The translations under genes and the position numbers were made by a program. From Clostridia bacterium (lineage in GTDB: Bacteria; Bacillota; Clostridia; Peptostreptococcales; Caminicellaceae), in the NCBI GenBank assembly GCA_028278115.1, contig JANQEZ010000008.1, positions 1 to 47,659 of the forward strand: a DNA stretch of 47,659 nucleotides. The letters are read 5' to 3'. The notes beneath the pieces were generated by a model. That model was given only the letters and a program-made list of their open reading frames with translations, was not told where the DNA came from and did not search any database. Below are positions 2,207 through 34,872 of the stretch, one piece after another; within the stretch, counting starts at the first letter, position 1; each line of letters opens with the position of its first letter.

Positions 2207-3523
2207 ATGAATAAGACCGAAATAAAGTATTATCTAATAATGGCAGGCTCCACAAGCCATATGCTTAGAGGTGATAAGCTATTAAAGGATAAGGCTGTGG
2301 GTACGTCCTTGGTGCCAGCACCTTCGGAATATGGTACAGTATGTGCAACAGCCATTAAGGTAAAGATTGAAGATAAAGAGATTTCTGAGAAAATACTTAG
2401 GGAAAATAATATAACCATTGAAGGCATTTATCCCGATAAACCAAGAAGACTAGCTGGATTAGTAGAAAAATTAATGGATTCCGTTATATCTCCGGAATTT
2501 ATGGAAGTCCTCAAAAAAATAGAAGATGGAGAAGATTTAAAGGAGCAAGACATTGTTCTCCTTCTTTCCACGGAAAGAAAGGCTGAAAAGGAAGCACTGT
2601 TTCACGCTGCCGACAGAATGAGAAAAGAAATTGTGGGAGATGTGGTTGATATTAGAGGGGCGGTAGAATTCTCAAATTACTGTCGTAAGGACTGTAGATA
2701 TTGTGGAATAAGAAAAAGTCTAGATGATTTAAATAGGTATAGGATGTGTGAAGACGAAATTATGGAGGTTGTTCACCACCTGCATGAAATTGGTCTTAAA
2801 ACAGTTATACTACAGTCGGGGGAAGACCTATGGTGGACCCCTGAAAAGATTTCTTCCCTTATAAAGAGGGTGAAGGATGAGACTAAGATGAATATAACCC
2901 TGAGTATAGGGGAGAGAGCAAAAGAAGAATATGAGCTTTATAAAAACCTTGGAACGAATAACTTTCTATTAAAGATTGAAACGACAAATAGGAAGCTCTT
3001 TGACTTTATACATCCCGATGATGATTATGACCATAGAGTAAAATGTTCTTCTTGGCTTAGAGAATTAGGTTATCTAAATGGTTCAGGGAATATAATAGGA
3101 CTTCCGGGGCAAACAGTAGAGGATATAGCAAAGGATATTTTATTCTTTAAGGAAATGGGAATAAATATGATTGGAATAGGGCCCTTTGTTCCTGCTAAAG
3201 GAACTCCCCTAGAGGGCTATCCCCAAGGAGATATAGAGATGACCCTTAAGGCAGTTGCGGTAACTAGAATAGTCTGTAAGAGGGTATTTATACCTGCTAC
3301 AACAGCCCTTGCATCCTTAGACCCAGATGGACAAACCAAGGCACTAAAGGCAGGTGCAAACACTATTATGCTTATAAATACACCTGCAAAATATAGATAT
3401 AATTATCAGATATACAGTGATAAAAATATGGTAGACCTTGAGTCAGCATTTATAGCAGTTGAAGAATCAGGTAGAAAAATGCCACCTTATCTTAAGGTTA
3501 AGAGAGAAGACTGTATAAAATAG
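2207..3523 (+). CDS. hydE: [FeFe]-hydrogenase radical SAM maturase HydE with an N-terminal DUF3343-like extension
   Basis: CRKDCRYCG radical SAM motif, and colinear by eye with T. maritima HydE from about residue 95 onward (IRGAVEFSNYCRKDCRYCGIR, VILQSGED, GLPGQT, GIGPF). Start chosen at ATG 2207, preceded by GGAGG at 2196-2200. The track start 2168 is a TTG inside repeat C2. Confidence 0.9.
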   Translation: MNKTEIKYYLIMAGSTSHMLRGDKLLKDKAVGTSLVPAPSEYGTVCATAIKVKIEDKEISEKILRENNITIEGIYPDKPRRLAGLVEKLMDSVISPEFMEVLKKIEDGEDLKEQDIVLLLSTERKAEKEALFHAADRMRKEIVGDVVDIRGAVEFSNYCRKDCRYCGIRKSLDDLNRYRMCEDEIMEVVHHLHEIGLKTVILQSGEDLWWTPEKISSLIKRVKDETKMNITLSIGERAKEEYELYKNLGTNNFLLKIETTNRKLFDFIHPDDDYDHRVKCSSWLRELGYLNGSGNIIGLPGQTVEDIAKDILFFKEMGINMIGIGPFVPAKGTPLEGYPQGDIEMTLKAVAVTRIVCKRVFIPATTALASLDPDGQTKALKAGANTIMLINTPAKYRYNYQIYSDKNMVDLESAFIAVEESGRKMPPYLKVKREDCIK

Positions 3524-3603
3524 ATAAGAGCTTTGTAAGTAGTAGCTCTTTAGATAAAACATTTAAATTAAAAAGTACAGTAAATGATTGGGGGTTAAGA
3601 GCC

Positions 3604-5001
3604 TTGACTTATAGAATCGAAAAGGATTTGCTGGGAGAGAATAGCATAGATAGTAGTAAATATTATGGTATAAATACCAAAAGGGCACTAGAGAACTTTG
3701 ACATAGGTACAAAGACTGTAAATATAAAACTCATTAAAGAGATAGCACTAATAAAAAAAGCAGCAGCAATTGTAAATAGTAAGCTTAAAAAATTACCACA
3801 GGATAAAGCCGATGCCATAGTAAAGGCAAGCGAAGAAATTATTGAAGGTAAATTTGATGATGAATTTAATATAAGTGCATTTCAAGGTGGTGCAGGGACC
3901 TCAACCAACATGAATGCAAACGAAGTAATTGCAAATAGAGGAATTGAAATTTTAGGCGGTGAAAAGGGAGATTATGATATACTACATCCACTAAATCATG
4001 TGAATATGTCCCAATCTACCAATGATGTATATCCTACTGCACTACGAATAGCAGCTATCCACATGCTGAGGGAGCTTAGCAATTCCCTTGCAGACCTACA
4101 GGAAGAATTACAGGTTAAGGAAAATGAGTTCAGTGAAATTATTAAGCTTGGAAGAACTCAGCTTATGGATGCTCTACCTATGATGGCGGGACAAGGCTTT
4201 GGAGCATATTCAAAGGCAATCGCCAGGGATAGATGGAGGGTTTATAAGGTTGAAGAAAGACTTAGGCAAATAAATCTCGGCGGTACAGCGATTGGAACAG
4301 GAATGAATGCATCAATCAAATACATCTATATGATTACAGATTTAATTCAAGATTTAACAAAGCTTGGCTTAGCAAGATCAGAATTTCCAATGGATATAAC
4401 TCAAAATACAGATGTTTTTGTAGAAGTCTCAGGACTGCTAAAGTCATGTAGCGTTAATCTACTTAAGATTTCAAACGATCTAAGACTATTGGCATCTGGG
4501 CCAAAGGGAGGCTTTGGAGAAATAAATCTTCCCAAGATGCAGGCTGGCTCAACTATTATGCCGGGAAAGGTTAACCCGGTAATACCAGAGATGGTGGCAC
4601 AGGTAGCCATGAGGGTTATTGCAAATGATTCAGCCATAACAATGGCAAGCTCTTCAGGTCAGCTTGAGCTTAATGCATTTTTACCTCTAATAGCCGAAAG
4701 TCTATTGGAATCTTTAGAGCTATTGAATGATGCTGTGGTATTGTTTAGAGAAAGATGTATTAAAGGTATAATAGTGAATGAAGATAAATGTAAGGAAAAT
4801 CTTGAAAAATCTACTTCCTTAGTAACTGCCCTTATTCATCATATAGGCTATGATAAAGCCAGTGAAATTGCAAAAAAGGCATTGAAGGAAGACAAGACCA
4901 TAAGAAAATTACTTAAAGAAGAGAATATTCTAAAGGAAGAAGAAATAAATAAGATTCTCAATCCATATGAAGTAACGAAGCCTGGGATACCGGGCAAATA
5001 A
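3604..5001 (+). CDS. Aspartate ammonia-lyase / class II fumarase family protein embedded in the hyd operon
   Basis: N-terminus YRIEKDLLGE...YYGINTKRALENF and the lyase signature GSTIMPGKVNP. 465 aa, TTG start. Same position as the AspA-like gene of the Thermotoga TM1266-1269 cluster. Confidence 0.88.
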   Translation: MTYRIEKDLLGENSIDSSKYYGINTKRALENFDIGTKTVNIKLIKEIALIKKAAAIVNSKLKKLPQDKADAIVKASEEIIEGKFDDEFNISAFQGGAGTSTNMNANEVIANRGIEILGGEKGDYDILHPLNHVNMSQSTNDVYPTALRIAAIHMLRELSNSLADLQEELQVKENEFSEIIKLGRTQLMDALPMMAGQGFGAYSKAIARDRWRVYKVEERLRQINLGGTAIGTGMNASIKYIYMITDLIQDLTKLGLARSEFPMDITQNTDVFVEVSGLLKSCSVNLLKISNDLRLLASGPKGGFGEINLPKMQAGSTIMPGKVNPVIPEMVAQVAMRVIANDSAITMASSSGQLELNAFLPLIAESLLESLELLNDAVVLFRERCIKGIIVNEDKCKENLEKSTSLVTALIHHIGYDKASEIAKKALKEDKTIRKLLKEENILKEEEINKILNPYEVTKPGIPGK

Positions 5002-5018
5002 TTTTGGAGGAATTGACC

Positions 5019-6263
5019 ATGAGTTTAAACGCTACGCCACGTTCAAACAGAGTCCATATAGCATTGTTTGGTAAAAGAAATGCAGGCAAATCCAGTATAA
5101 TAAATGCCATTACAAACCAAGATATCGCCATAGTATCCGATGTAAAGGGAACCACAACGGACCCTGTTTATAAATCCATGGAGATACTACCAATCGGTCC
5201 CTGTGTAATAATTGATACCGCTGGCTTAGACGATATCGGTAATTTAGGAGAGCTTAGAATCAAAAAGACAATGGAGGTCTTGAACAAAACCGATATAGCT
5301 ATATTTGCTATAGATGCCACAACGGGCATATCCGACGATGATAGGATTATTATAGGTAAAATTAAGGAAAAGAAAATACCCCTAATAGTGGTATTAAATA
5401 AAACCGACCTGCTGGAGGTAACTAAAGAAGAGATTATTAACTTCACTAAAGAGCTTAAGACTATCGTAATAGCAATTTCTGCCTTGAAAAAACAAGGTAT
5501 AAAAGAGCTTAAAAAGAAGATTATTAACCTGCTGCCCGATGATGAAGATAAATTTAGAATAGTAGGTGATTTAGTAAACCCAGGTGACTTTGTAGTCCTT
5601 GTTACTCCAATAGACAAAGCAGCTCCAAAGGGAAGACTGATTTTACCTCAGCAGCAGACCATTAGAGATATATTAGAAAGTGATGCTATAGCAATAGTAA
5701 CAAAGGAATACGAGCTAAAGGAAACATTAGAAAATATATCGAAAAAGCCAAAGCTGGTAATAACAGATTCCCAAGCCTTTTTAAAGGTTGCTGCCGATAC
5801 TCCAAAGGATATACTAATGACATCCTTCTCAATACTCTTTGCAAGATATAAAGGGGATTTAGAACAGCTTGTAAGGGGTGCAAAGGAGATTGAAAAGCTT
5901 AAGGATGGCGACAAAATCCTTGTTTCCGAGGGCTGTACCCATCACAGGCAGGCTGATGACATTGGCAGAGTAAAAATTCCAAGATGGATAAGGCAGATTT
6001 CAGGTAAAAAGCTTGACTTCGAGTTCAGCTCCGGAAATTCCTTTCCCGATGATGTAGAAAAATATTCATTAATAGTTCATTGTGGAGGATGTATGCTCAA
6101 TAGAAGAGGCATGCTTTATAGGATTAATAATGCTAAATCCTTGGGAGTGCCAATAGTAAACTATGGCGTTCTAATTGCTTACGTGCAGGGTATACTTCCT
6201 AGAGCACTAGAGCCCTTCCCACTTGCTAAAATGATTTGGGATGAAGAGCTTATAGATGTGTAA
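5019..6263 (+). CDS. hydF: [FeFe]-hydrogenase maturation GTPase/scaffold HydF
   Basis: P-loop GKRNAGKSS, DTAG and NKTD GTPase motifs. C-terminal cluster ligand motifs CTHH and HCGGC. Start at ATG 5019 after GGAGG at 5006-5010. Confidence 0.92.
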   Translation: MSLNATPRSNRVHIALFGKRNAGKSSIINAITNQDIAIVSDVKGTTTDPVYKSMEILPIGPCVIIDTAGLDDIGNLGELRIKKTMEVLNKTDIAIFAIDATTGISDDDRIIIGKIKEKKIPLIVVLNKTDLLEVTKEEIINFTKELKTIVIAISALKKQGIKELKKKIINLLPDDEDKFRIVGDLVNPGDFVVLVTPIDKAAPKGRLILPQQQTIRDILESDAIAIVTKEYELKETLENISKKPKLVITDSQAFLKVAADTPKDILMTSFSILFARYKGDLEQLVRGAKEIEKLKDGDKILVSEGCTHHRQADDIGRVKIPRWIRQISGKKLDFEFSSGNSFPDDVEKYSLIVHCGGCMLNRRGMLYRINNAKSLGVPIVNYGVLIAYVQGILPRALEPFPLAKMIWDEELIDV

Positions 6264-6394
6264 CTTAGAAACTTAACCTTTTTTCAAAATATTTCGTAAG
6301 CCAAAACTACAATGCTTAATTTGGCTAATAGCTAATGGCTGATAGCTTATAGCAAAACCATCGAAAGTAAAACTTATCGGTCACACATCTATAG
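6251..6394 (+). repeat. Family-B MITE-like element, copy B1 (its left terminus overlaps the hydF stop codon)
   Basis: Termini TATAGATGTGTAAC...GGTCACACATCTATAG. Internal hairpin AGCCAAA-N14-TTTGGCT. Four to five RGCTNAY heptamers. Homologous to 8840-8966, 13031-13182, 19771-19913 and 31897-32033. Confidence 0.85.
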
Positions 6395-7371: not shown

Positions 7372-7890
7372 CCAAAGTATAAACTTTAATAGTACTAGTA
7401 GATGGAAGGAGAATTCAAATGAAGATAGACTATTCGTTTATCACATAGGTTAGGCTACAGCATCTTTTCAGAGCTTAACAGAACTAGAGGAATTAATTGT
7501 GTAAAAAAGGCAGTCTATATGTCTAATAAAGACTTTGTGGAGAAGTTTTTAGACAAAGAGTTAAAGCTATAGTTTTAATTACAAATATACACCCATAAGG
7601 TTGTCAGTATCTAAATTACAAGCTTTAATAAAAATTATGGATAAGACATTGAATGGTTGGATATGGGGATATAAAAAGGATGATTCATTTACAAAAGCAT
7701 GGGCTCCACTCAATCATTTAGAAGAGATATAAATGTTTTTTGTGTAAAGAATCGCCAAAGGATAGCGGAATTATGTATTTTAGTAAAAAAATTCACAAAC
7801 TATATTGATTATATGCAAATTATTTTTAAATATAATAAAAATAAGTAGATATTAGATTGATAGATTAGATATATTTAGGAGGATTATATT

Positions 7891-8358
7891 TTGTACTTTA
7901 TTAGTATGGTTTCAAATAATGAAGAAAAAGAAAAGATAACAAATGATATATTGAGAGGCCTACCAGAATGGTTTGGAATAGAAGAATCCATAGTTAAGTA
8001 TGTGAATGAAGTAAAGAATACAGATTTTTATGCAGTATACGATTCAAGTTTACCCATAGGGTTTATCAGTATAAAATCTAATAATGTATTTACTTCAGAG
8101 ATATATGTTATGGGGATATTAAAGGAATACCATAACAAAGGAATTGGAAAAAAGCTGATAAGAAAAAGTGAAGAAGTCTTAAAAATGAATGACTATAAAT
8201 TTTTAATGGTTAAAACTCTAGGTGAGTCACATCCAGATAAATATTATAAGTCCACCAGAGAATTTTATAGTAAAGTAGGCTTTTATCCCTTGGAAGAGAT
8301 AAATGAACTATGGGGAAAAGAGAATCCTTGTTTGATTATGGCTAAATTAGTGGGGTGA
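7891..8358 (+). CDS. GNAT family N-acetyltransferase
   Basis: Acetyl-CoA binding motif region VMGILKEYHNKGIGKKLI. 155 aa. TTG start 8 nt after AGGAGG. Confidence 0.75.
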   Translation: MYFISMVSNNEEKEKITNDILRGLPEWFGIEESIVKYVNEVKNTDFYAVYDSSLPIGFISIKSNNVFTSEIYVMGILKEYHNKGIGKKLIRKSEEVLKMNDYKFLMVKTLGESHPDKYYKSTREFYSKVGFYPLEEINELWGKENPCLIMAKLVG

Positions 8359-8852
8359 AGAGATTGATAGAAACTGAAAGAGCTGTATTATATAGACTAC
8401 AGCCCGGGGATTATGAAGATGTAAAAAAGCTTTATAGGGATGAAGAAGTGAGGAAATATCTTGGTGGAATAGTCGATGAAGAGAGATGTAAAATAAAGTT
8501 TTCAAATATGCTTAATTTAGAGGATGATTCATATTATTGGGTCATTAGAGAAAAGGAGAAAAAACAATTTATTGGACTAATTTCTCTTGATTTACATCAT
8601 AATGGCAAGGATACTGAGCTGTCATATCAGTTAATGCCAAAATGGTGGGGAAAGGGTTATGGAACAGAGATAGCCAAAGGGGTCATTAAATATGCATTTC
8701 AAGATCTGAGACTTTCAAGAATATTAGCTGAAACACAAACATCAAACAAATCATCATGCAGGCTTTTAGAGAAAGTAGGAATGATGTTTAAGGAAACAAC
8801 CAAAAGGTTTGGAGCGCAACAATCAATTTATTGTTTGGATATAGATGGGTGA
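8355..8852 (+). CDS. GNAT family N-acetyltransferase (RimJ/RimL-like)
   Basis: WWGKGYGTE motif and ...SNKSSCRLLEKVGM, typical of the RimJ-like GNAT subfamily. 4-nt GTGA overlap with the upstream GNAT. Its last codons lie in repeat B2. Confidence 0.75.
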   Translation: MKRLIETERAVLYRLQPGDYEDVKKLYRDEEVRKYLGGIVDEERCKIKFSNMLNLEDDSYYWVIREKEKKQFIGLISLDLHHNGKDTELSYQLMPKWWGKGYGTEIAKGVIKYAFQDLRLSRILAETQTSNKSSCRLLEKVGMMFKETTKRFGAQQSIYCLDIDG

Positions 8853-8966
8853 GCTAGAAGTTTTACTTTCAATGTTTTGCTGTGAGCCATTAGACAAATA
8901 GGCTTTGTAGTTTTGGCTTAAGAAATATTTTTAAAAAAGGTTAAGTCTCTAAGCAATACATCTATA
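8840..8966 (-). repeat. Family-B MITE-like element, copy B2 (inverted orientation, one terminus degenerate)
   Basis: TATAGATGGGTGAGCTAGAAGTTTTACTTTCAATGTTTTGCTGTGAGCC...GGTTAAGTCTCTAAG aligns with the reverse complement of B1 and B3. Confidence 0.8.
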
Positions 8967-10565: not shown

Positions 10566-11303
10566 GTGTATAAACCTGTGCTCTTATGCTGTGTCCATGA
10601 TCCAAAAGGTGATAATATTATGCCTTTGACGAAAGTTATCAATAGATTAGATGAAGTATATTCACAGAAATATATTACAGTGAGTGATGTAACATGTCAG
10701 AAACTTATAGATAAATTAAGGAAATATAATTTTAAAATAAGAACTATTCCCAAAAGAGGAGCTGCAAATGCAAGACGGGAAGTTTTAAGCTTCGGCTTAG
10801 ATTCCAATGGAGATTATTTTCATTACTGTGATTTTGATAGAATAATCACTTGGGCAAGTAGACATTTTGATGAGCTCAAAAGGGTTGCTGAAGAATTGAA
10901 ATGTTCAAGCTACATAATCTTTGGAAGAACGGAAAGAGCCTTTTCAAGTCATCCAATAGAGTGGCAAGAGACTGAGAAGATAAGTAATAGCATTTGCTCT
11001 ATAGTACTAAAAAAAGAAGTTGATGTAACAGCAGGCTCATGTGGATTTTCTAGGGAATGCTTAGAAGGATTAATACAGTACTCAAATGCAAAGATGACGG
11101 ATTCTGAGTGGCCTATGATTGTAAAAAGAATTATAGGATTAGAAATTGACTATAAGAAAGTTGATGGTCTTGAGTATATTGAAGATATAAATGCCCTTAG
11201 GAGAGAGCAAACTGATAATGAAAAGTGGATTGGCAGGTTAAAGCTCTGTCAAATTATTTGTGAAGCAGTACTAAAGATTGATAGAGAAAATAAGGAAAGA
11301 TAG
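10566..11303 (+). CDS. Hypothetical protein, possibly a GT-A-fold nucleotidyl/glycosyl-transferase-like protein
   Basis: 245 aa. GTG start 7 nt after AGGAG. Has an N-terminal beta-strand-like VLLCCVHD, then RGAANARREVL, then the DxD-like CDFDR. I recognise no confident family. Confidence 0.5.
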   Translation: MYKPVLLCCVHDPKGDNIMPLTKVINRLDEVYSQKYITVSDVTCQKLIDKLRKYNFKIRTIPKRGAANARREVLSFGLDSNGDYFHYCDFDRIITWASRHFDELKRVAEELKCSSYIIFGRTERAFSSHPIEWQETEKISNSICSIVLKKEVDVTAGSCGFSRECLEGLIQYSNAKMTDSEWPMIVKRIIGLEIDYKKVDGLEYIEDINALRREQTDNEKWIGRLKLCQIICEAVLKIDRENKER

Positions 11304-12458: not shown

Positions 12459-12493
12459 AAGAGCCAAGAGCTAAGACCAAAGAGCTAAAAAGC
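12459..12493 (+). repeat. Heptanucleotide tandem array (AAGAGCY-type, about 5 units)
   Basis: AAGAGCC AAGAGCT AAGACCA AAGAGCT AAAAAGC read directly. The array abuts the terminator hairpin. Confidence 0.8.
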
Positions 12494-13030: not shown

Positions 13031-13182
13031 TATATATGTGTGACTTAGAAACTTAACCTCTTTATGTATATATTTCTTAACTAAAGCTACAATGCTTAAT
13101 TTGGCTCACAGCTAATGGCTGACAGCTGACAGCTCACAGCGAAGATATTGAAAGTAAAACTTCTGGGTCACATATCTATATA
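13031..13182 (+). repeat. Family-B MITE-like element, copy B3 (largest heptamer array)
   Basis: TATATATGTGTGACTTAGAAACTTAACC...GAAAGTAAAACTTCTGGGTCACATATCTATATA. Six RGCTNAY heptamers at 13103-13144. Confidence 0.85.
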
Positions 13183-13188
13183 GGGTTT

Positions 13189-13287
13189 TTAGAGTAAAAC
13201 TTAACTTATACATGACCCAAATATGCGATGATTCTAGGCATTTTGGGGTGTGTATAAGTTGTAGTTTTACCTAAAATACCTATAAAA
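13189..13287 (+). repeat. Family-A long-hairpin repeat, copy A2 (directly abuts B3)
   Basis: 98 of 99 nt identical to 1-99. Confidence 0.9.
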
Positions 13288-13402: not shown

Positions 13403-13433
13403 TAGGGCAATTGGATACAGAATATTTTGTAAA

Positions 13434-13576
13434 AATTTTTCCGAGTCAATAATTCTAAGGAATTTCTACGAATTATTGACCGATGGGTGTAAAGGGAAAT
13501 CTTTATGCCTCCCGTGTTTGGAAAGGAAAATTTTAATGGTTTATACATTCCTTTCAAGAGGAGTGTTTTTATTTTT
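13434..13576 (+). promoter_or_regulatory. Moco (molybdenum/tungsten cofactor) class riboswitch with a terminator expression platform
   Basis: Conserved elements in the expected order: CCGAG (13441), an 11-bp hairpin GTCAATAATTC/GAATTATTGAC, GCCTCCC (13507-13513) and GGAAAGGA (13520). The terminator is CATTCCT/AGGAGTG plus a T-run (13546-13576). Its 5' arm can alternatively pair with the GGAAAGGA strand. It lies upstream of the tungstate transporter. Confidence 0.8.
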
Positions 13577-14641: not shown

Positions 14642-15331
14642 ATGGAATATATAGCTGATGGATTTATTGAGGCATTTAAACTTCTTTTATCCTTGGATCA
14701 AGAGGTCTATTCAATAATACTATTATCAATCTATGTATCCCTTACTTCTACACTTATTTCTTCATTAGTGGGAATACCCCTTGGTTTTTTTCTGGGACTA
14801 AAGAAGTTTAGGTATAAAAGGATAGTGACAAGGTTTCTATACACATTTATGAGCCTTCCACCAGTTGTAGTAGGATTAACTGTTGCGGTTATTATTTCAA
14901 GGAGGGGACCGCTGGGAAGCTTAGGCTTATTATTTACACCTGCTGCTATGATTATTGCACAAACTTTATTAGTAACACCCATAATTACAGGTATAATCTT
15001 CAATAACTCTAAAGAACAGGGCCACGTAATAAGACAGGTTTGTAAAACCCTTGGAGGAAATAGACTAGACACTCTATTGCTTTTAATCAAGGAGATGCGA
15101 ATAAATATACTTATTGCAGTAGTAACTGGTTTTGGGAGAGGCATATCGGAAGTTGGTGCAGTAATGATAGTAGGAGGAAATATAAAGGGGCATACAAGGG
15201 TAATGACATCCTTTATAGCAATGAATCACAGCATGGGGAACTATTCCATTTCCATAGCCATGGGAATTGTTTTACTGGCAATTTCTTTCATTACAAATTC
15301 AGTATTGTATAAATACGTAGCAGGAGATTGA
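14642..15331 (+). CDS. tupB: Tungstate ABC transporter permease TupB
   Basis: 229-aa polytopic membrane protein with a binding-protein-dependent transport signature region. Lies between tupA and tupC. Confidence 0.85.
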   Translation: MEYIADGFIEAFKLLLSLDQEVYSIILLSIYVSLTSTLISSLVGIPLGFFLGLKKFRYKRIVTRFLYTFMSLPPVVVGLTVAVIISRRGPLGSLGLLFTPAAMIIAQTLLVTPIITGIIFNNSKEQGHVIRQVCKTLGGNRLDTLLLLIKEMRINILIAVVTGFGRGISEVGAVMIVGGNIKGHTRVMTSFIAMNHSMGNYSISIAMGIVLLAISFITNSVLYKYVAGD

Positions 15332-17310: not shown

Positions 17311-17413
17311 TTCATAATTCTGACTTGGCAAAATTGCATAATATGCGAATATTTTCATTAAATAGAGTATTTAAAATAGAAAATATTTCGATGGTATAGC
17401 TATAGGGATTCTA
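17311..17413 (+). repeat. Family-D intergenic repeat, copy D1
   Basis: Aligns over about 100 nt with the reverse complement of 32037-32141. Shared blocks are CATAATTCT.ACTT.GCA, ATAATATGC.AATATTTTC and GATGGTATAGCT.TAGGGA. Confidence 0.75.
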
Positions 17414-17475
17414 AAACTATATATAGTAGTAAGTTTTTCAGGATGGCAATTATGCAATTTGCTCAATTAAAAATT

Positions 17476-17517
17476 TAGAATTAAGAATGAAGAATGAAGA
17501 ATGAAGAATTAAAGAAG
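17476..17517 (+). repeat. Heptanucleotide tandem array (AAGAATG-type, 6 units) in the left arm of a long AT-rich hairpin
   Basis: TAGAATT AAGAATG AAGAATG AAGAATG AAGAATT AAAGAAG. A partly complementary arm AATTCTTAACTCTTAATT lies at about 17575-17595. Confidence 0.8.
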
Positions 17518-17617
17518 CCCCAGAAGAAGTTTTATTGGAGACTAAAGAATTATATTTCTGCCAGTTTTTTAATTTTTAATTCTTAACTCTTAATTAGTTA
17601 AGTGGAGGTTGTTTTCA

Positions 17618-19770: not shown

Positions 19771-19913
19771 TATATAGATGCGTGACTGAGAAGTTTTATT
19801 TTCAATGTTTTGCTGTGAGCTGTCAGCCGTTAGCTGTTAGCCAAATAGTCATCGTAGTTTTGGGCTGTGAAATATTTCTAAAAAAGTTAAGTTTTAGGGT
19901 CACACATCTAGAG
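19771..19913 (-). repeat. Family-B MITE-like element, copy B4
   Basis: TATATAGATGCGTGACTGAGAAGTTTTATTTTCAATG...GTTAAGTTTTAGGGTCACACATCTAGAG. Confidence 0.85.
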
Positions 19914-31896: not shown

Positions 31897-32033
31897 TATA
31901 TATGTGTGACCCTAAAGTTTTACTTTCAATGTTTTGCTGTGAGCCGTTAGCTATTAGCCAAATTAAGCATTGTAGTTTTGGCTTACGAAATATTTCAAAA
32001 AAGGTTAAGTTTCTAAGTCACACATTTATATAG
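31897..32033 (-). repeat. Family-B MITE-like element, copy B5
   Basis: ATATATGTGTGACCCTAAAGTTTTACTTTCAATG...GGTTAAGTTTCTAAGTCACACATTTATATA. Its reverse complement is closely similar to B1. Confidence 0.88.
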
Positions 32034-32036
32034 ATT

Positions 32037-32141
32037 TAAGTTCCCTAGAGCTATACCATCAAAATAATTTTTATATAAAATACTATAATAAAGGAAAATA
32101 TTTGCATATTATATAGTCCTGCTAAGTTAGAATTATGCTGC
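32037..32141 (-). repeat. Family-D intergenic repeat, copy D2 (abuts B5)
   Basis: Its reverse complement aligns with 17311-17413. Confidence 0.75.
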
Positions 32142-34750: not shown

Positions 34751-34830
34751 ATTGCTAAGGAACTCTATCACAAGTAAAATATCGTGTTCTAATTACCTTC
34801 TTCTTAAAACCTATTAGAAAGCCCCTAATA

Positions 34831-34872
34831 CTTGCAACTTGGAACTTAGAACTTAAAACTTGCAACTAAAGC
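34831..34872 (+). repeat. Heptanucleotide tandem array (CTTNNAA-type, 6 units)
   Basis: CTTGCAA CTTGGAA CTTAGAA CTTAAAA CTTGCAA CTAAAGC, followed by the palindrome CAAAGGCCTTTG. Confidence 0.8.

Follow-up and report, generated by a model that had tools for sequence, protein, structure and literature searches.

The stretch of DNA analysed here (the window, 47,659 nt) carries at five places a short repeat, family B, with inverted termini and an internal block of heptamers, one copy of which lies between a Mog-like gene and a riboswitch. The question raised by this locus is what sort of element family B is and, if it is mobile, what kind of enzyme would move it. The original prediction, made from the letters of the sequence, had placed the copies at 6251-6394 (+), 8840-8966 (-), 13031-13182 (+), 19771-19913 (-) and 31897-32033 (-), and all of them were recovered by the nhmmer profile used here. 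We argue below that family B is very probably a MITE family that inserts at, and duplicates, the dinucleotide TA and that is mobilised in trans, most likely by a source of the IS630/Tc1-mariner type.

Results

The host and its genomic setting

The window has a G+C content of 30-36% and a strong positive GC skew, and its genes, almost all on the plus strand, are of the housekeeping kind (hydE, hydG, hydF, rapZ, yvcK, whiA, dnaE, pfk, pyk and molybdenum-cofactor genes). Its HydF protein is 86-88% identical to those of Caloranaerobacter azorensis, C. ferrireducens and strain TR13 and 91-93% identical to proteins from metagenome contigs, which makes the host an uncultured bacterium akin to the thermophilic Caloranaerobacter. 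Logan contigs of SRR20820740 are 100% identical to the window and end inside B5, inside copies of two further repeat families (A1, A2 and D1, see below) or inside a hexamer array, L001 being the contig that ends in B5; contig ends at repeats are the usual behaviour of short-read assembly. A look-up of the TM1266-like protein returned only contigs that break in family A, and exact-protein look-ups for the Mog-like protein and for MoaC found none on record.

The copy that prompted the question has a neighbourhood of some interest in its own right. At 13427-13544 there is a Moco/tungsten riboswitch (RF01055, 83 bits). An ABC-transporter operon follows it downstream, as do moeA, moaA and moaC and, at a greater distance, a gene for aldehyde:ferredoxin oxidoreductase. 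Both B3 and A2 are found between this riboswitch and the divergent Mog-like gene, 26 nt from the Mog-like start codon.

Copies and architecture of family B

An nhmmer profile built from the copies finds exactly five full-length matches in the window, with E values from 1e-32 to 1e-42 (Table 1), and no sixth significant match anywhere in its 47,659 nt. A 30-nt degenerate pattern of the right end also matches five times, as against 0.01 matches expected from shuffled sequence. The five copies are 84-92% identical to one another, and the alignment of the five stretches has a mean column identity of 75%, with conserved blocks at both ends and in the middle. Each core starts with TAGATGTGTGAC and ends with GTCACACATCTA, is 123-146 bp long and has a G+C content of 29-37%. 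The outer inverted termini to which the original prediction had pointed, TATAGATGTGTGAC and GTCACACATCTATA, are seen in every copy; they comprise 14 nt and extend in all five to ~20 imperfect pairs.

The flanks of the copies are mutually unrelated and their orientation to the flanking genes is mixed (two plus, three minus), while all five fall within 26 kb of each other. That all copies are intergenic, as had been stated, holds except for B1 and B2, which cut into the 3' ends of the HydF and GNAT genes. The nesting described earlier was found again, B3 adjoining A2 and B5 adjoining D2; the B-terminus-like stretch reported at ~17518-17538, on the other hand, is below significance in the profile search. 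The internal hairpin AGCCAAA-N14-TTTGGCT had been attributed to most copies, but it is perfect only in B1 and B5, degraded in B2-B4 and missing from the related copies L009 and L010, and it is therefore not a feature of the family.

Stop codons interrupt most reading frames of the copies, and the stop-free six-frame segments of all five, concatenated and compared with 5.8 billion sequences, matched no protein at E<=1. The element also has no match to a named family, as originally supposed: Rfam gave no match (at the gathering score or at E<=1), nor did phage and plasmid records, and the terminus string, when searched for in the literature, led to nothing relevant.

Table 1. Family-B copies and their heptamer blocks in the window
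Feature	Positions	Strand	Composition	Detection	Setting
B1	6251-6393	+	TA 6251-6252, core 6253-6391, TA 6392-6393	nhmmer E 3.5e-42	5 codons ahead of the original HydF stop
B2	8840-8966	-	TA 8840-8841, core 8842-8964, TA 8965-8966	nhmmer E 1.9e-32	last GNAT codons and short spacer ahead of methyltransferase gene
B3	13031-13180	+	TA 13031-13032, core 13033-13178, TA 13179-13180	nhmmer E 1.6e-39	between divergent Mog-like gene and Moco riboswitch, adjoining family-A copy A2
B4	19773-19912	-	core 19775-19910, TA on one side, TC on the other	nhmmer E 3.3e-39	between moeA-like and moaA genes
B5	31897-32030	-	TA 31897-31898, core 31899-32028, TA 32029-32030	nhmmer E 2.3e-39	downstream of yvcK (CofD family), adjoining family-D copy D2
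B1 heptamer block	6323-6353	+	4 RGCTNAY units + partial	TRF period 7, 4.3 copies	
B3 heptamer block	13103-13140	+	5 units + partial, longest in window	TRF periods 7 and 14	
B4 heptamer block	19812-19841	-	4 units	TRF period 7, 4.3 copies	
B5 heptamer block	31939-31959	-	3 units	unit count	

The heptamer block

The number of full RGCTNAY units runs from a single one in B2 to the five of B3, each array being followed by a partial AGC, and the original estimate of about two to six was thus a fair one. TRF reports period-7 arrays inside B1, B3 and B4. In the predicted folds of the copies adjacent units pair as mini-hairpins; because AGCT is self-complementary, neighbouring units can form slipped mini-hairpins, which makes it likely that the VNTR arose, and that the block changes its length, by replication slippage.

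Heptamer arrays are also present elsewhere in the intergenic DNA of the window, at 12459-12485, 17477-17509, 17569-17595 and 34830-34867, with units that are unrelated to RGCTNAY (AAGAGCA, AGAATGA, TTAATTC and ACTTGCA). Of these, the pair near 17.5 kb is arranged in inverted orientation about a central segment, and about one in three TRF rows for the window is an array of period 7 or 14.

Filled and empty sites at hydF

The HydF ORF (5004-6263) runs 13 nt into B1. Contig L006, which comes from sister run SRR20820734, matches window positions 3391-6252 over 2,862 nt at 99.27% identity and is without B1: its empty site reads GAAGAACTTA followed directly by GCGATACTTTATAAAAAAGAACAGT, where the window reads GAAGAGCTTA, then B1, then TAGTGATACTTTATAAAAAAAGAACAGT. 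There is a single TA in L006 at the place where the window has TA-element-TA (CTTA, TAGATG...CATCTA and TAGTGATACTTTATAAAAAAAGAACAGT in the window; CTTA and GCGATACTTTATAAAAAAGAACAGT in L006). The filled site is accordingly longer than the empty one by the element and one further TA, and this amounts to a 2-bp TA target-site duplication. L005, a 93% relative, has this empty site too (TTTAGTGATAC), and in L003, a 92% relative, the region downstream of HydF is likewise without the element, so that it is the insertion that is derived.

The protein ends agree with this account of the DNA. From the comparison with L005 we had predicted an empty allele in which ...TTA is joined to GTGATAC... and the protein ends in ...WDEELSDTL*, and this was before the HydF of L006 (P0002) had been matched; the prediction proved exact. 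P0002 is identical to the HydF of the window except that it has SDTL in place of IDV, so that the WDEELIDV of the window corresponds to WDEELSDTL in the empty allele, and removal of B1 with one TA restores the C-terminus found in relatives. The polymorphism of B1 between strains that are 99.27% identical shows that the family has moved recently. Within the window the closest relative of B1 is B5, at 92% identity. Since B1 was inserted after a strain split of 0.7% and its nearest copy here is only 92% identical, its donor must lie outside the window.

A further difference is seen ~25 nt past the empty site, where L006 (2888-2902), reading ACAATATAAAAAGCT, diverges from the window (6419 onward), reading TCCTATGACATTTAT, and the end of the contig follows. 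This points to another repeat, or to a second structural change, immediately 3' of hydF in the L006 strain.

B2 and the other TA flanks

The GNAT ORF (8355-8852) extends into B2, and both it and the HydF ORF stop at a TGA or TAA at terminus positions 11-13, which in HydF is a TAA. For B2, the relatives L013-L015, found through a search for homologues of VanW (closest VanW 85%), were used as empty sites; that search returned no near-identical strain and nothing closer than 85%. The spacer between the GNAT and methyltransferase genes is 121 nt in the window as compared to 24 nt, or an overlap, in L013-L015. When the B2 core and one TA are removed, the GNAT C-terminus becomes ...QSIYCLDKNI*, which is homologous to the ...QSIYYLENNIL* of the orthologues in L013 and L014, where the spacer is 24 nt. 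Comparison with L005 had offered another reading, in which the GNAT gene ran into B2 after losing its stop codon; we rejected it, as L013-L015 show that it is the L005 gene that is short and that B2 sits in the true 3' end. L005 itself has, 3' of its GNAT orthologue (5050-5075), the string TATAGATAGGTGTTGGC, which resembles a family-B terminus at about the B2 position and is below profile significance; this may be the relic of a terminus or a chance resemblance.

Four of the five window copies, and the copies L009 and L010 of another organism, have TA on either side, and the TC/TA of B4 is one point change away from this. The B3 empty site could not be read in L003, where the intergenic DNA is too diverged. 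The target-site duplications for which the original prediction had proposed a search are thus 2-bp TA duplications, as judged by the B1 empty site, the removal of B2 and the TA flanks. The terminus, TA-TAGATGTGTGACTTAG, carries a stop in each reading frame within ~20 nt, so that an interrupted ORF ends at once; the insertions in HydF and GNAT therefore merely swapped the last 3-4 residues.

Dispersal in relatives

A scan of metagenome contigs with the terminus pattern TAGATGTGTGACNNNRAARYTTWAC found three contigs, all from assembly MDTG01 (GCA_001757525.1), which is also the assembly that contains the 93% relative L005. By nhmmer these hold two full copies and one right half (E 1e-12 to 1e-17) with the same layout, TA flanks and a heptamer block of 3-4 units, and the genes on either side of them are unrelated housekeeping genes and include no transposase. 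Identity between the two full copies is 86%, as compared to 73-80% between them and the window copies, and the two so form a sister subfamily. As diverged copies at unlinked loci of a related organism, they establish that the family is dispersed, and the possibility raised with the original prediction, that the copies are restricted to this window, is answered in the negative.

Closer to the window loci, L014, whose VanW is 85% identical, has a decayed B-like right half at 7485-7545, with heptamers and the sub-terminal box, upstream of a signal-peptidase gene, and a weaker trace of such an element is visible at the matching place in L013 (about 7650-7760). No family-B copy is present in the syntenic stretches L003, L004 and L005. 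The relic in L014, together with the absence of copies from L003-L005, indicates that the family is old in the clade and that its insertions are lineage-specific.

Searches further afield were blank. The right-end pattern, run against one genome for each of 185,579 species, gave a single chance match in Staphylococcus, with no other similarity, and it had no match in JGI metagenomes or in viral contigs. The terminus pattern too had no match in viral contigs, and blastn of the copies against plasmid and phage records found none.

The search for a mobilising enzyme

Pfam scans of the 39 main ORFs of the window gave only housekeeping-type families, in agreement with the earlier statement that the window has no transposase; nothing in Pfam matched the ORFs at 10566-11303 and 14642-15331. 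It had also been proposed that an autonomous element with matching termini be sought. This was looked for in the window, in the loci of relatives and in metagenome contigs, and none was found: no transposase or longer element with such termini occurs in any relative locus examined, and the terminus-pattern scan of metagenome contigs turned up MITE copies and no autonomous element.

Other small repeats of the window

Family A is a ~100-nt long-hairpin repeat with inverted ends GGGTTTTTAGAGTAAAACTTAACTTATACA, present at 1-105 (A1) and 13183-13284 (A2), the two being 97% identical. A2, a complete copy, is flanked by TA, as is the right end of A1; the start of the window falls inside A1. Against Rfam it gave only sub-threshold matches to plant miRNA hairpins, which we took as generic long-hairpin noise, and it is probably a second TA-targeting MITE family. 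Family D is a 111-nt repeat with inverted copies at 17313-17423 and 32027-32137 that are 80% complementary, one of which adjoins the left end of B5.

Arrays of hexamers (AGGTTG, AGGATG, AGGTTA) with up to ~18 units lie at 485-603 and 2006-2196, just downstream of the TM1266-like gene and of the first radical-SAM hyd gene. Each is followed by a complementary array of the CCTTAA type, so that a transcript could form one long hairpin. Because the 92% relative has a shorter version in its own hydE/hydG spacer (L003 5060-5199), this feature is a conserved one and not a recent insertion. Its dense GGA or Shine-Dalgarno-like motifs might bind a regulator or the ribosome.

Several of these repeats had been grouped in the original prediction, on account of shared sub-terminal motifs, as one superfamily of modular elements. 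Family A does have a GTAAAACTTAAC-like box as well as TA flanks, which speaks for the grouping; the AACTTAACC of the hexamer arrays, however, is the complement of GGTTAAG repeats and speaks against it. Over the window TAAAACTT occurs 17 times where 6.5 occurrences are expected, and AAACTTAAC 7 times where 0.8 are expected. Taken together, the idea of one superfamily is weakly supported.

Discussion

The analysis supports the view that family B is dispersed, MITE-like and non-coding, has inverted termini and a heptamer VNTR, and matches no named family. Its copies are below ~300 bp, have no coding capacity, end in terminal inverted repeats, duplicate their target as read from filled and empty sites, and occur in several dispersed places, which is what is understood by a MITE; family B is thus a new family of a known and ordinary kind of element. 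As it encodes nothing, an enzyme encoded elsewhere must move it. Insertion at TA with a 2-bp TA duplication is typical of the IS630/Tc1-mariner group, and a source of that type would be the most likely one, an assignment that draws on the TA duplication and on no other character. We envisage that a DDE-type transposase from elsewhere in the genome would recognise the inverted termini, and that the element would be excised and then integrated at a TA, which would be duplicated, by what we suppose to be cut-and-paste chemistry. Insertions would persist at places where the damage is slight, namely a short spacer or the last few codons of a gene.

REP and BIME elements were considered and rejected. 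These are ~20-40-nt G+C-rich imperfect palindromes that make no target duplication and are associated with RAYT/TnpA(IS200). The copies described here are 123-146 bp long with 29-37% G+C, and have long inverted termini and a TA duplication, and the Pfam scans detected no RAYT-like gene in the window.

How far do other explanations account for the same observations? That all five copies lie inside 26 kb might suggest that they arose by segmental duplication or recombination of this region and are not a mobile family at all, yet their flanks are unrelated, the empty site in the 99.27%-identical strain is clean and bounded by TA, another organism has copies at unlinked loci and the donor of B1 is not in the window, and the chance that this explanation is right is vanishingly small. 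It is also extremely improbable that the copies are primarily structured RNAs (an sRNA, a terminator or attenuator, or an RNase III target) for which repetition is secondary. B1 and B2 lie within transcription units and so must be transcribed, and each copy does fold so that its ends form a long stem (z-scores as low as -4.7); the stability of that stem, however, simply results from the inverted termini. Across the seven full copies the RNAalifold covariation term is +0.29, double changes are seen in only two of 30 pairs, mismatches in the terminal stem are uncompensated, and the internal fold varies from copy to copy. Nor do the mixed orientations relative to flanking genes, the lack of any Rfam match even at E<=1, or the promoter and terminator scans, which found no conserved signal inside family B, favour a role of this kind. 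A somewhat different proposal accepts the MITE and holds that its heptamer block was co-opted as an array of sites for a DNA- or RNA-binding protein or as a contingency-type switch that rewires the expression of neighbouring genes. The block is indeed the best-conserved internal part between window and MDTG01 copies, whose left halves differ strongly, heptamer arrays are common in the intergenic DNA of the window, and the repeat-bearing MITE BrickBuilt is able to carry promoters (PMC4596501). We nonetheless regard co-option as very unlikely, as the unit number varies freely from one to five without relation to context, orientation and distance to genes are inconsistent, no promoter-like signal rises above chance, and the homogeneity of the heptamers is expected from slippage alone.

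The alternative that deserves most attention leaves family B a MITE and changes only what moves it. Some IS5-group elements likewise make 2-bp duplications. The enzyme could thus be of the IS5 group, or an unidentified activity like that behind the Correia elements, which have long inverted termini and a TA duplication and no known transposase (PMC2229807), or the partner could have been lost and the family be decaying. In line with this, an autonomous partner was found neither in the window nor in the relatives' loci nor by the terminus scan, the copies are fairly diverged (84-92%), and there are relics in relatives. Set against it are the age of B1, which is younger than the 0.7% strain split and so requires that a mobilising activity existed very recently, and the TA duplication itself, a hallmark of IS630/Tc1-mariner elements for which RUP and IS630-Spn1 are a Firmicute precedent (PMC2229807). 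On balance we see a non-IS630/Tc1-mariner enzyme as possible, though the less probable case. A bolder version would make families A and B and the other small repeats a co-mobilised set served by one transposase or host factor that reads the GTAAAACTTAAC-like box, with the heptamers perhaps a functional module for protein binding or the tuning of expression. We know of no IS with family-B termini, and for that reason the enzyme might be of an undescribed type; even so, we consider such a set improbable. The reading that we prefer is that of a TA-duplicating MITE family mobilised in trans, with an IS630/Tc1-mariner-type source as the probable one.

Several described elements resemble family B on this reading. 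RUP is a Firmicute MITE of ~107 bp with inverted termini, TA duplication and stops in all frames (PMC2229807; PMC10969869), and has been proposed to be mobilised by IS630-Spn1 (PMC2229807). The two families share inverted termini and the TA duplication, and RUP, as family B does, occurs mostly between genes and is found clustered or nested with other small repeats (PMC2229807; PMC10969869). They differ in that RUP has a candidate partner IS with matching termini where none was found for family B, and in that its terminal pairing is shorter (9 bp contiguous; PMC2229807) and it has no internal tandem-repeat block; no sequence similarity was seen between them, the comparison being one of descriptions and not a direct alignment. 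The Correia or NEMIS elements of Neisseria are similar to family B in their length (~107-155 bp), long inverted termini (~24-26 bp) and TA duplication, and also in having length variants of an internal segment, in lying next to or inside the ends of genes, and in having been defined by filled and empty sites (PMC2229807). They belong to another phylum and have no sequence homology to family B, whose pattern gave no Neisseria match among the genomes of 185,579 species, and their length variants stem from a 50-bp indel in contrast to the heptamer VNTR described here. Correia termini start with TATAG.

BrickBuilt, from Porphyromonas gingivalis, is like family B a species-restricted, intergenic MITE with an internal tandem repeat of varying unit number (PMC4596501). 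Most of BrickBuilt, however, consists of its repeat, a 23-nt minisatellite, and its inverted ends are small, whereas family B has a 7-nt block of 1-5 units between long termini. The Stowaway-type MITEs, which are derived from Tc1/mariner elements, have the same TA duplication, inverted termini and small size, reach high copy numbers, prefer genic surroundings and are mobilised in trans by a related transposase. Their hosts are eukaryotic, and any kinship with family B is one of mechanism class, which depends on the putative IS630/Tc1-mariner assignment.

Family B leaves the understanding of how such elements work unchanged, and its significance is more local. It explains the altered C-termini of HydF and GNAT, the inflated spacers of operons and the breaks in short-read assemblies, and its presence or absence and heptamer number provide a strain-typing marker for this uncultured, thermophilic relative of Caloranaerobacter. 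With it, the TA-duplicating MITEs confined to a lineage gain one more member, and the polymorphism of B1 shows that a mobilising transposase is active, or was very recently active, in this clade.
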